Below, in pieces: positions 2,490-6,926 of a DNA stretch of 22,588 nt. A program made the position numbers and the translations under genes. Location: the NCBI GenBank assembly GCA_016930515.1, contig JAFGGO010000007.1, positions 1-22,588 of the forward strand, in the 5' to 3' direction. Each line of letters starts with the position of its first letter. Position 1 is the first letter of the stretch. This stretch comes from Promethearchaeota archaeon. Lineage in GTDB: Archaea; Asgardarchaeota; Lokiarchaeia; Sigyniarchaeales; SOKP01. The notes beneath the pieces were generated by a model that was given only the letters and a program-made list of their open reading frames with translations, did not search any database and was not told the origin of the DNA.

Positions 2490-3392
2490 ATGAAAATTGG
2501 ATACACCTGTATCAATCAATCGTTAAGTTGTCGGAGTAGCAATACTTTCAGGTTAAAAAATTATAGTAAAAAAAGGTTAATTGAAGTAATCGAAGGAAAT
2601 CTAAATTGTCTCGAAAAAATTTTAACCTTTAATAAATCAAATGGGATTTATTTCTTCAGGATAACTTCAGGGCTCGTTCCTTTTGCGTCTCACTCCATAA
2701 TGGATTTCAATTGGCAAGATCATTTTAAACATCGATTTAGAGAATTGGGAACATTCGTAAAAAAGAATGAAATGCGCATTAGCATGCATCCTGGTCAATA
2801 TATTGTTTTGAATTCCACGAATCCCGCTGTTTATGAGAAATCCATCAAGGATTTAAAATATCACGTGGAGCTTCTCGACTTGATGGAACTGGATGCTAAC
2901 GCTAAAGTGCAGGTTCATGTGGGTGGTGTTTATGGTGATAAAACAAAGAGCTTGAAGCGCTTTATCAGTCGATATTATTCTCTGGAAGAAGAGATTAAAA
3001 GAAGATTGGTAATAGAAAACGACGATAAAAGCTACGCTCTACGAGACTGTATGGAAATTCATGATTCTACGAATATTCCCGTTATATTTGATGTATACCA
3101 TCACGCTTGTTTCAATTGCGGTGAAAGCATCCAAGAATGCTTTGAAGTATTTATAAAAACTTGGAAAGAAATCGATGGACTTCCAATTGTTCATTATAGC
3201 TCGCAACATCCCGACAAGGGAAAAGGTAGTCACTCCGACACGATGGATGTTAATAATTTTAGGAACTTCATAGACATGACAAAAAATTTCGACTTTGATC
3301 TAATGTTAGAAATTAAAGAAAAGGAAATCGCTGCTTTAAAGGCTTTGAAGTATTTAATAACAGATTCGCGATTAATATATAAATTATCTTAA
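2490..3392 (+). CDS. uvsE: UV DNA damage repair endonuclease (UVDE)
   Basis: MKIGYTCIN start and motifs FFRITS, RISMHPGQY, HVGGVYG, IENDD, FDVYHH, HYS, HSD and DLMLEIKEKE; 300 aa. Confidence 0.95.
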   Translation: MKIGYTCINQSLSCRSSNTFRLKNYSKKRLIEVIEGNLNCLEKILTFNKSNGIYFFRITSGLVPFASHSIMDFNWQDHFKHRFRELGTFVKKNEMRISMHPGQYIVLNSTNPAVYEKSIKDLKYHVELLDLMELDANAKVQVHVGGVYGDKTKSLKRFISRYYSLEEEIKRRLVIENDDKSYALRDCMEIHDSTNIPVIFDVYHHACFNCGESIQECFEVFIKTWKEIDGLPIVHYSSQHPDKGKGSHSDTMDVNNFRNFIDMTKNFDFDLMLEIKEKEIAALKALKYLITDSRLIYKLS

Positions 3393-3890: not shown

Positions 3891-3992
3891 TTTAACTCTT
3901 AAATTTCTTTTCTTTAATACATTACGAATAAAATTAAATAGTATTTTATGTTTGTTGTTTATGAAAAATAACTCTTTTTATCATTGATATTT

Positions 3993-4793
3993 ATGGCTAA
4001 CATCAGAATTGGATGTGCTGGTTGGGATTATAAGGATTGGAAGGGATCTTTTTATCCAAAAAAAATTGAAAAACTCGAACACTTAGAATTTTATGCTCGT
4101 TATTTCGATTTCGTGGAGATTAACTCCACATTTTATAATATTCCCTCAGAAAGCGCTGTAATACATTGGGGGGCGTGTGTATCAAATTCATTTCAATTTT
4201 CCGTAAAACTATGGCAAGATATTTCTCACGATCTAAACAATTCCGATTTGGAGTCTTTAGTTAGCCAATTTTTTTCCAGATTTACACCACTTGGTGATAA
4301 AATTGCTCTTTTTTTGATCCAATTTCCCGCTCGTTTTCAACATTCTGAGATTCACGAGCATTTATTCAAGCTTCTATTGAATAGCTTTCCTTCAGAATAT
4401 AAATTTGTTTTCGAATTTCGCCACGAATCATGGTTCGATTCGGATATGTTATCGAAGATATTTAAAAAAAATAACTTAATTATTGGAACAACTTATCTTG
4501 AAGGTGTTAAATCCTATTTCCATCCAAATCAAGACTTATATTATATTAGACTTATTGGAGATCGAAAATTAACTAAGTTTGATGGGATTCAAAGGAATCA
4601 ATCACTTATTACAAACGATTTAGTTAAACGCATCCATCAACTAAACAAATCCAATATTGTAAAACAAATTTTCATTGTTGTGAACAATCATTATGAGGGA
4701 TTCTCTCCCGATACTGTTAATAAAATCAAGAAGAAGCTCCAATTGCCAATTCTGTCGTTTTCTAATCAAAAAAAATTAGAAGATTTCTTTTAA
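3993..4793 (+). CDS. DUF72 (YecE-like) TIM-barrel protein
   Basis: IGCAGWDYKDWKGSFYP, VEINSTFY, LIQFP, FEFRHESW, YIRLIG and NNHYEG motifs. ATG at 3993 preferred over TTG at 3984. Confidence 0.93.
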   Translation: MANIRIGCAGWDYKDWKGSFYPKKIEKLEHLEFYARYFDFVEINSTFYNIPSESAVIHWGACVSNSFQFSVKLWQDISHDLNNSDLESLVSQFFSRFTPLGDKIALFLIQFPARFQHSEIHEHLFKLLLNSFPSEYKFVFEFRHESWFDSDMLSKIFKKNNLIIGTTYLEGVKSYFHPNQDLYYIRLIGDRKLTKFDGIQRNQSLITNDLVKRIHQLNKSNIVKQIFIVVNNHYEGFSPDTVNKIKKKLQLPILSFSNQKKLEDFF

Positions 4794-4824
4794 AAAAATG
4801 AAATGAAAAAATATTAAAAAAAAA

Positions 4825-5004
4825 TTATTTGCTTTTTTTCTCGTCTTCTTCTTTCAAGAACGAATAGGAAATCACGCTTTTTTCTTCGATTTCCAGGCTT
4901 TCAATTAAGTCTTTTAAATGACTTTTTTGGGGGTGTTGCTCCAATTCATTTTCACCTTTTACTTTTTTTTCAATTTCCAGGACAAAGACGAATTTTAATA
5001 TCAA
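4825..5004 (-). CDS. Small charged protein, 59 aa, missing from the ORF track (MILKFVFVLEIEKKVKGENELEQHPQKSHLKDLIESLEIEEKSVISYSFLKEEDEKKSK)
   Basis: Translated by hand: TTG at 5004 to TAA at 4825. GGAGA SD lies 5 nt upstream, codons are purine-rich (Glu/Lys), and a U-rich tract follows the stop. Confidence 0.65.
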   Translation of the reverse strand: MILKFVFVLEIEKKVKGENELEQHPQKSHLKDLIESLEIEEKSVISYSFLKEEDEKKSK

Positions 5005-5027
5005 ATGCGTCTCCTGTAAAAACGCAT
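5005..5027 (-). promoter_or_regulatory. Hairpin occluding the Shine-Dalgarno of the 59-aa ORF
   Basis: AUGCGUUUUU-ACA-GGAGACGCAU forms up to 10 bp including 3 G-U pairs that exist only on the minus strand. It ends immediately before the UUG start. Confidence 0.55.
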
Positions 5028-5090
5028 CAAAAATCTTAGATTCGTAGAAAATAAAACGCTAAATCCATAGAAAAGAAGTAATGAATCGCC

Positions 5091-5203
5091 AGAGACGCTT
5101 TCATGAGTTATTGACAAGTACCGTTATATGCCCATACTGGCAGGTACTTAGTTCTCATGTATTCGTGAGTGGTTGGCACCACGCACTTAAATCGTCTCTC
5201 CAT
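5091..5203 (-). ncRNA. Candidate structured RNA (three-way junction); family not recognised
   Basis: Nested stems: 5091-5097/5193-5199 (7 bp), 5165-5173/5178-5186 (8 of 9 bp, 4-nt loop), 5102-5107/5154-5159 (6 bp), 5116-5122/5143-5149 (7 bp) and 5129-5132/5139-5142 (4 bp). It is GC-richer than the flanks and begins ~25 nt downstream of a BRE-TATA. Confidence 0.65.
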
Positions 5204-5227
5204 AAATAAAACAAATCATCCATTGGA

Positions 5228-5242
5228 TATAAAATTTTCGCT
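5228..5242 (-). promoter_or_regulatory. Archaeal BRE-TATA promoter (AGCGAAAA-TTTTATA) driving the structured RNA and small ORF
   Basis: Close match to purine-rich BRE plus TTTATA. The predicted start near 5203 coincides with the 5' end of the RNA structure. Confidence 0.6.
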
Positions 5243-5258
5243 TGAAGTCCATCCCTGA

Positions 5259-5678
5259 TCAAACAATATTAGGTAATATAGCATTACTCGGACATTCTTT
5301 AAAGCATTTCAAGCACTTTGAGCACCCTATTATTTCAGAAACTTTGAATTCAATGCGTTCTTGGCCAATTTCGTCAGTGGAAATAATAAATAAGTTCTTA
5401 GGGCAAAAATCTTTTTTTAAACACATTTTGCATAATACGCACTTATCTGAATCTATTGAAAAACCATCTAAAGAACCCTCTGCTATAGAGATGACCTCAA
5501 TTGCTCCGTGTTCACAAACATCCACGCATTTTAAACATCCTTCGCATTTATCGTAATTCACGTAACGAAGTGAATTGTCGAAAAAGATGGCTTTTGGGTG
5601 ACAGCTATAGAAACATCTTTGACATCTAACGCAGAGGGAAGGATTTATCGAAATTGGAAATAATTTCTCATTTTTCAT
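5259..5678 (-). CDS. Polyferredoxin with four [4Fe-4S] motifs
   Basis: CVRCQRCFYSC, CEGCLKCVDVC, CVLCKMC..FCP and CSKCLKCFKECP. ATG at 5678 preferred over TTG at 5714. Confidence 0.9.
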   Translation of the reverse strand: MKNEKLFPISINPSLCVRCQRCFYSCHPKAIFFDNSLRYVNYDKCEGCLKCVDVCEHGAIEVISIAEGSLDGFSIDSDKCVLCKMCLKKDFCPKNLFIISTDEIGQERIEFKVSEIIGCSKCLKCFKECPSNAILPNIV

Positions 5679-5792
5679 TGTTTTTAAAGTCAAGAGCGTA
5701 GTTAGACTAATCAATCTAAAATTTTATTACATTTTAATGTTTTTAATATATTTAATAAATTGTACGATTCAGCGAAATAGAAGATATTTTTA

Positions 5793-6320
5793 ATGAAATA
5801 CGAAGCTCTTAAAAATACTGATTTTTTTAGTTTTTTTAATTTTCAAGAGTCAGAATTTTTTAATCTTTCTTTCAAGGGAATTTGCCTCAAACCCGGAGGA
5901 TTTCAAGAATATATTGATTTAATTCTATGTCTAGACAACGAGGAGGAAATCGTACAAGCCTTCCTTTACCTCGATCGAGAGTGGATTGGAAACGAGGCTT
6001 CTATAAACCCATTTGGAAAGGATATTTCAAAGAGTTTTATCGACGCCTTATATCCTAAGGATTTGAACGACGAATTTAAACCATCGTTAATAACGAGCTT
6101 GTGGAACTTAAAAGGAACGAAAGATACCATAATTTGCCTCGATAAAGTGATACAAGCCTGGGAAAATTCTGATAGCCAAGTGAAGGCGTTTTTGGATGCG
6201 TATCGGGGCTCATTAAAAGAAGTTTCAAAAAAGAATAACGATAATGTCGAGATTCGGATGAAAAATCTAATAGAAAACGGAAAAAATCGACTTTTAATAA
6301 CCATTATATTTCCAAGATGA
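5793..6320 (+). CDS. Hypothetical soluble protein
   Basis: 175-aa ORF with ATG start and normal composition, 9 nt upstream of the next co-oriented gene. No motif recognised. Confidence 0.75.
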   Translation: MKYEALKNTDFFSFFNFQESEFFNLSFKGICLKPGGFQEYIDLILCLDNEEEIVQAFLYLDREWIGNEASINPFGKDISKSFIDALYPKDLNDEFKPSLITSLWNLKGTKDTIICLDKVIQAWENSDSQVKAFLDAYRGSLKEVSKKNNDNVEIRMKNLIENGKNRLLITIIFPR

Positions 6321-6329
6321 TAAATTATA

Positions 6330-6926
6330 GTGGTATCTCTGAAAAATCTCAGGAAATGGATCATTCCTCTATTGGCTATAGTTTTTCTCGTAATATCTAT
6401 TTTCGTCTATGGATTAAGATGGTGGTTTCCACGAGATCAAATAGATTGGCAAATAATCTTATTTTTATTTACCTTCATTGCTTTATTCGAAATCACGGCG
6501 TTAATCCTAAACCCAAAGATATTAAAAAATTCTATTGATTTATTGAAAGACCAAATGGTGGTTAAAGCCCTTCAAAGGAAAGATTTAACAACATTAGTAA
6601 TAATTTTTCCTTTAACAATGCTATTCGAAGAATTATTATTCCGCTTGTTCATTTTTGTTACTTTATTCGTTAGTTTAGACCTTTTTTTTGCAACAACCAT
6701 TGGAACGCTCTCTTTTTCAATTTATCACATCCATATTTGGTTTGAGTTTAAAAATAAGAAAATTTTATCCTCTTTCATACTTTTTTCTGCATTATTGGGA
6801 TTCATTTTAAACCTGATGGTTTATTATATTGGTTTATTTGCGTGTGTTGTTATTCATCTTATTTCTGTTTTGTGGTTGTTTCAAAATATAAGCAAGAAAA
6901 TTAATCTATCCTACTCCCTGTCTTAA
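6330..6926 (+). CDS. CPBP family (Abi/CAAX type II) intramembrane glutamic endopeptidase
   Basis: FEELLFR (EExxxR), FSIYH (FxxxH) and a C-terminal VVIH motif in a polytopic membrane protein. GTG start. Confidence 0.88.
   Translation: MVSLKNLRKWIIPLLAIVFLVISIFVYGLRWWFPRDQIDWQIILFLFTFIALFEITALILNPKILKNSIDLLKDQMVVKALQRKDLTTLVIIFPLTMLFEELLFRLFIFVTLFVSLDLFFATTIGTLSFSIYHIHIWFEFKNKKILSSFILFSALLGFILNLMVYYIGLFACVVIHLISVLWLFQNISKKINLSYSLS

Follow-up and report, generated by a model that had tools for sequence, protein, structure and literature searches.

The minus-strand element studied here is, in our reading and with fair probability, a stand-alone, monocistronic, leaderless mRNA of ~130 to 160 nt, predicted to express a basic microprotein of 31 residues. 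It lies in the window, by which we mean the whole stretch of 22,588 nucleotides of Promethearchaeota archaeon DNA that was analyzed. An earlier note had described it as a structured RNA of no recognized family, either a cis-regulatory aptamer or a noncoding small RNA. That proposal is not supported, since from its first base onward the element is occupied by an open reading frame (ORF) that the note missed, which begins at the predicted transcription start and is conserved in start, stop, length, and amino acid similarity in all three copies. A candidate new Asgard noncoding RNA or riboswitch is thereby removed; its place would be taken by a microprotein gene that is unannotated and whose leaderless mRNA is unusually structured. 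The features of the locus are given below in window coordinates; G000 is the window's own genome, and G003 and G005 are the genomes with the other two copies.

5241..5227, minus strand: predicted archaeal promoter, BRE-like GCGAAAAT plus TATA box TTTATAT (5233..5227), read from the sequence; box kept in three of three copies
5203..5108, minus strand: predicted 31-codon ORF, ATG at 5203..5201 and TAA at 5110..5108; same ATG and TAA and no indels in G003 and G005
5199..5193, minus strand: closing helix, 5′ strand AGAGACG, covering codons 2 to 4; from the minimum free energy (MFE) fold, kept in three of three homologues
5186..5165, minus strand: short hairpin GUGCGUGGU-GCCA-ACCACUCAC over codons 6 to 13; from the MFE fold
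5159..5102, minus strand: long arm with internal loops, from the MFE fold of the window; lineage specific, not conserved
5097..5091, minus strand: closing helix, 3′ strand CGUCUCU, in the 3′ untranslated region (UTR), 11 nt past the stop codon; from the MFE fold
5074..5046, minus strand: T-rich tracts beyond the fold, namely, UUUU (5074..5071) and conserved UUUUAUUUUCU (5056..5046), from the sequence and the spacer alignment
4944..4825, minus strand: predicted acidic small ORF of 39 codons, TTG start at 4944, Shine-Dalgarno sequence AGGTGA; from the alignment, with strong matches only in G000, G003, and G005

The fold of the minus-strand element is real and nonrandom. When positions 5206..5088 of the minus strand were folded, the MFE structure was the set of stems drawn in the earlier note, with an energy of −38.6 kcal/mol, compared to −25.5 ± 3.0 for dinucleotide shuffles (z, −4.38). 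None of 200 shuffles was equally stable, so that the fold lies outside the shuffled distribution, a comparison which that note had suggested. The plus strand of the region folds nearly as stably (z, −3.71) because the set of helices is near-palindromic. Local G+C content is 0.39, against 0.28 to 0.32 in the flanks.

We also agree with the earlier view that the element belongs to no recognized RNA family. The window gave 0 matches at gathering thresholds in Rfam 15, which includes 5S rRNA, riboswitches, hammerhead, and snoRNAs. A permissive Rfam search of positions 4800-5500 returned chance-level matches alone (E > 1), and the homologous loci L004 and L036 gave a single unrelated match (E = 0.65). 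A tRNA had been dismissed by eye, and an ARAGORN search of the window for tRNA and tmRNA likewise found 0 genes. The element is single copy in its own 4.0-Mb genome, with no match on viral contigs; a mobile-element end, a miniature inverted-repeat element (MITE), or another repeat is ruled out by that one copy.

The homologue search that the note had recommended did produce relatives, all of them confined to one genus. There are two in total, in G003 and G005, both Promethearchaeota MAGs of the window's genus. Sixty relatives were searched with BLASTN, 120 and 150 genomes from the family and order with covariance models R1 and R2, and 154 genomes from the order with a peptide profile; all GTDB species representatives were scanned for DNA and peptide patterns. 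JGI metagenomes and viral contigs were also covered. Beyond G003 and G005, no homologue was found in the order genomes, GTDB species, JGI metagenomes, or viral contigs. Covariance-model matches in G142 and G156 were marginal; they are AT rich and have no closing helix, and we consider them chance. The G003 copy is 75% identical to that of the window and has the same 109-nt length; the G005 copy is much more diverged. Three other genomes of the genus (68 to 90% complete) have neither the element nor the neighboring Rce1-like gene, and thus the whole locus is patchy within the genus.

The three copies share only part of the fold. Their native sequences have z-scores of −4.38 (window), −2.15 (G003), and −3.93 (G005). 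The MFE structure of G003 differs from that of the window, and G005 folds as a four-way junction, sharing just the closing helix (AAGAGAGAA/UUCUCUCUU) and a short hairpin. In a model-based alignment of the three, pairing is kept at 95% in the closing helix and at 87.5% in the short arm, with double-sided changes. A single-stranded AUUUAA junction is also conserved. In the lower stem of the long arm, which is broken in G003, pairing is 75%; the remainder of the arm has no alignable counterpart in G005, where two other hairpins replace it. Hence, the three-way junction that the earlier note described is present in the window but is not a family feature, given that the long arm is not conserved; as such, it is a feature of the window's lineage. 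Covariation, among three sequences, divides in the same way, with compensatory changes in the closing helix and short arm but a long arm that is not conserved. Assignment to a riboswitch or aptamer class finds no support in this comparison, the shared architecture being limited to the closing helix and short arm and the long arm being replaced in G005.

Within these limits, some RNA structure appears to be under selection, since the native sequences are more stable than synonymous recodings that preserve the peptide and the native UTRs (z-scores of −4.05 [0/400], −1.46 [8%], and −1.9 [3%]). Two G-C pairs of the short arm have switched to A-U in G005, and both switches are synonymous on both sides: Lys6 AAG>AAA with His13 CAC>CAT, and Val8 GTG>GTA with the third base of codon 11, C>T. 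Such double changes would be the outcome expected from joint coding and structural constraint; if this is true, synonymous compensatory changes can satisfy both constraints together. Arg4 has become Glu in G005, a radical change that is compensated in the 3′ UTR and for which the helix, and not the protein, looks to be the cause.

The ORF spans the 5′ strand of the closing helix and both arms, and only the 3′ strand of that helix lies beyond the stop, in the 3′ UTR. In all three copies, the ATG and the TAA are at identical positions, separated by 31 codons with 0 indels. A six-frame comparison found this frame to be the sole one open in all three. Its BLOSUM scores are 107, 47, and 54, compared to at most 8, and down to −20, for the other sense frames in the distant pairs. 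When the observed substitutions were scattered at random, the frame stayed open with a score as high in 0.05 to 0.2% of trials for the distant pairs; for the close pair, this happened in ~4%. The permutation P value for the amino acid excess in this frame is ~0.0005 to 0.005, from three sequences; all of these comparisons rest on three related sequences of one genus, and every statistic is thin. Antisense coding was also considered and rejected, as the window's 42-codon plus-strand frame is broken by two stops in G003.

The 3′ half of the ORF bears most directly on the peptide. Compared to G005, nucleotide identity there is 41 to 46% and the long arm of the window is not shared. Frame 0 scores +10 and +17 over this stretch, versus −8 to −19 for the other frames (column-shuffle P, 0.002 to 0.005), and the amino acid similarity includes a Trp-to-Phe replacement and a Pro-x-aromatic-x-aromatic pattern. 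Conservative replacements of this kind, e.g., Trp>Phe (TGG>TTC), fit selection on a peptide. The unpaired 5′ AUG is invariant, and the bases preceding it vary. Differences by codon position number 8/6/8, 16/13/18, and 12/12/17 for the three pairs; they are nearly even, with no clear third-position excess.

The promoter is placed as one might expect for a leaderless transcript. The TATA box at 5233..5227 occupies −30 to −24 from the A of the ATG at 5203, with CGAAAAT just before it, and TTTAWAT stands at exactly −30 from the ATG in three of three homologues. This is leaderless-mRNA geometry, by position alone, and the transcription start near 5203 that was predicted earlier is a reasonable one. 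In the genome at large, upstream of 2,682 long ORFs of G000, TTTAWAT has a broad peak at −64 to −54 and Shine-Dalgarno-like GGTG/GAGG lies at −14 to −11. There is a minor extra TATA peak at −34/−30 from start codons, implying that leaderless genes do occur in G000. As judged from these motifs, G000 is mostly leadered with Shine-Dalgarno sequences and has a leaderless minority. At the other end of the element, the T-rich motif UUAUUUUCU.CGAA (window, 5056..5046) is common to all three spacers, and the T-rich tracts are probably an archaeal oligo-T terminator. A promoter of its own, correctly spaced, and the conserved T-rich tract that follows the fold make it probable that the transcript is stand-alone, as one branch of the earlier interpretation had it. 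Two metatranscriptome runs of the source study have no contigs on the region and are evidence neither way; the DNA runs gave short unrelated pieces only.

The predicted peptide is basic and hydrophilic, with a net charge of +3 to +7 and a GRAVY score of −0.28 to −1.05. The best 15-residue window has a hydrophobicity of at most −0.01, and there is no membrane helix. No usable match to the peptide was found in Pfam, NCBIfam, or the ESM Atlas. A search of 1.84 billion representative proteins returned solely a translated tandem repeat, which we regard as junk, and the exact peptides are absent from a collection of 15 billion proteins. AlphaFold2 gave a low-confidence model (pLDDT, 55). Most likely, to go by sequence, this is an unannotated basic microprotein of a family not recognized, restricted to one genus.

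Downstream of the element, an acidic ORF of 34 to 39 codons follows in the same orientation and adjacency in all three genomes, with an invariant core, LEIEQKSVISYS. A GATAAAAT-like box ~45 to 50 nt upstream of its start is conserved in the three spacers. The alignment suggests that this ORF starts at TTG 4944 (39 codons) and not at TTG 5004 (59 codons), in which case the GGAGACGC motif at 5014..5007 would not be its Shine-Dalgarno sequence; a protein search with the 59-amino-acid extended form matched itself alone. The minus strands of the window (5007-5027) and of G003 (L004, 1413-1440) have a hairpin ~80 nt past CGUCUCU, the 3′ strand of the closing helix; G005 has no equivalent. The 3′ strand of this hairpin repeats GAGACG, which could take over from the 5′ strand of the closing helix as the partner of CGUCUCU. 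Elsewhere in the genus, there are paralogues of the acidic ORF (34 to 40 codons, ...LEI.QK.VI.YSK...) without the structured element. They lie directly after a gene of ~197 residues whose N terminus is ribbon-helix-helix (RHH)-like, making up a recurring two-gene cassette in the genus, at the following places.

G000, contig C113, 14164-14896 (L089, 964-1696): paralogue cassette
G003, contig C292: paralogue cassette
G004, contig C269 (L056): paralogue cassette
G005, contig C214 (L088): paralogue cassette

The idea that the element's locus is the decayed 3′ end of such an RHH-type gene was dropped, as tblastn found no similarity. The shared T-tract, the acidic ORF's own upstream box and Shine-Dalgarno sequence, and the paralogues without the element suggest that the two small genes are transcribed separately, and this speaks against the element serving as a riboswitch or leader.

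How else might the conservation be explained? The element could be a purely noncoding, stand-alone structured small RNA with a fortuitous ORF, its conservation reflecting RNA structure and tertiary contacts. We consider this unlikely. It would account for the strong z-scores, the conserved closing helix and short arm with their compensatory changes, the AUUUAA junction, the flat codon-position profile, the Arg-to-Glu change compensated in the 3′ UTR, and the lack of protein homologues in the databases searched. It would not readily explain why length, ATG, and TAA are exactly kept although the long arm has given way to two unrelated hairpins in G005, or why amino acid similarity holds at 41 to 46% nucleotide identity without shared structure. 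Moreover, no other frame of the six is open in all three copies, and the unpaired 5′ AUG does not change although the preceding bases vary. A further step would be a dual-function RNA, a messenger for the peptide that also works as a base-pairing or protein-binding small RNA via the conserved helices and the A/U-rich junction. For such an RNA, we found no target; the sole nearby complementary motif, GGAGACGC at 5014..5007 (AGAGACGAG in G003), is absent from G005, and control of the mRNA's own translation or stability is a simpler account of the structure. Thus, even though coding and structural constraints act together here, the compensatory changes are synonymous, and Methanosarcina mazei provides an archaeal precedent in small RNAs that encode translated small proteins (PMC11456600; bioRxiv 10.1101/2025.10.28.685009), we think the dual-function RNA improbable.

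Finally, the element might be a cis-regulatory leader, either a riboswitch or an attenuator with a leader peptide, for the acidic ORF 150 to 200 nt downstream, and here we are close to dismissive. The constant orientation and adjacency of the two in three of three genomes would be in keeping with such a role, as would the capacity of the 3′ strand of the closing helix to pair with the downstream GAGACG copy in the window and G003. But that alternative pairing motif is absent from G005, a conserved T-rich tract separates the element from the acidic ORF, and the acidic ORF has its own conserved GATAAAAT-like box and Shine-Dalgarno sequence as well as paralogues elsewhere that do without the element. 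The parts that would form an aptamer core, the long arm and junctions, are not conserved, and there is no Rfam riboswitch match.

Returning to the leaderless microprotein mRNA, we imagine that transcription would start ~25 nt downstream of the TATA box, at or beside the ATG at 5203, and end within the T-rich tract at 5074..5046, with translation initiating without a leader from the 5′-terminal AUG. The RNA would also be selected for folding, codons 2 to 4 forming a helix with a segment of the 3′ UTR and a hairpin forming on codons 6 to 13. As the closing helix begins 1 to 2 nt from the 5′-terminal AUG, the finished transcript may be a poor one for leaderless initiation. Translation might then take place mainly during RNA synthesis or once the RNA has been opened or trimmed, and the paired ends could shield this short mRNA from exonucleases. 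In this way, the 5′-3′ helix probably gates translation and stabilizes the transcript. Two points are against the leaderless reading: most G000 genes are leadered, and a helix 1 to 2 nt after a 5′-terminal AUG is awkward. One can envision a stronger version, a translation-gated or truly dual-function Asgard RNA in which the 5′-3′ helix and the codon-embedded hairpin are kept by synonymous compensation, as a peptide-timing switch or for a second noncoding activity; this we regard as doubtful.

The closest known kind is the archaeal small-protein-encoding small RNA (spRNA) or unannotated small ORF, both catalogued in Methanosarcina mazei (PMC11456600; bioRxiv 10.1101/2025.10.28.685009). Like the M. 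mazei spRNAs, the element would be a short, small-RNA-like transcript with its own promoter and a conserved ORF of <70 codons overlooked by gene callers. Unlike them, its translation is a prediction and no antisense partner was seen, and there is no sequence relationship between the two; the 5′-3′ closing helix and the predicted leaderless start set the present element apart. Leaderless translation is itself well documented in archaea, for instance by ribosome profiling of Haloferax volcanii (PMC7261190). The element resembles archaeal leaderless mRNAs in having a TATA box ~25 to 30 nt upstream of the ATG, no Shine-Dalgarno sequence, and a predicted AUG at the 5′ end, and it departs from typical ones in the stable helix 1 to 2 nt after that AUG and in its setting, a genome where most genes appear leadered.

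The pairing of the two ends recalls type I toxin mRNAs such as hok and aapA1, in which 5′/3′ end pairing keeps the full-length mRNA translationally inert (PMC6733600, PMC8594479). As in those mRNAs, a tiny ORF sits in a compact fold, with a 5′-3′ helix, kept by covariation, beside the initiation region. The peptide here differs in being hydrophilic and basic with no membrane helix, and the host is an archaeon and the mRNA putatively leaderless. Membership among type I toxin-antitoxin systems was rejected on the character of the peptide, which is hydrophilic and cationic. In a motif scan of the three loci for an antisense antitoxin, neither the ORF nor the sequence downstream of it had a conserved antisense TATA-like box. 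Bacterial dual-function RNAs, SgrS/SgrT, RNAIII/hld, and SR1/SR1P (reviewed in PMC12612679), offer another comparison. Shared with these is a single short structured transcript under both coding and RNA-structure constraint; the present element differs in having no known base-pairing target, in belonging to another domain of life, and in showing no homology to them.

If the gated or dual-function reading is true, this element would show, in an archaeon, a folding logic like that of type I toxin mRNAs in bacteria. If the coding reading is true, structured-RNA scans of AT-rich archaeal genomes can pick up tiny coding genes, and genus-specific microproteins in Asgard archaea escape gene callers. 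For now, the wider importance is limited, in that the family has three members and no functional link.

The other neighbors differ in how constant they are. Upstream on the same strand, an ORF with a 4Fe-4S ferredoxin domain (5714..5259) is absent beside the G005 copy, for which the Rce1-like/CPBP gene is the direct divergent neighbor. This gene, for an Rce1-like/CPBP intramembrane protease, is divergent in three of three genomes (window, 6330-6926, plus strand; L036, 793-1365, minus strand; L004, 2740-3111, plus strand). CPBP/Abi proteins are immunity factors in some bacteriocin loci. The cationic peptide might partner with the adjacent acidic small protein or with this neighboring CPBP/Rce1-like membrane protease. 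The window also includes a UvdE UV-endonuclease (2490-3392) and a DUF72 protein (3984-4793), and a 175-codon ORF at 5793-6320, which has no Pfam match, is conserved in G003.
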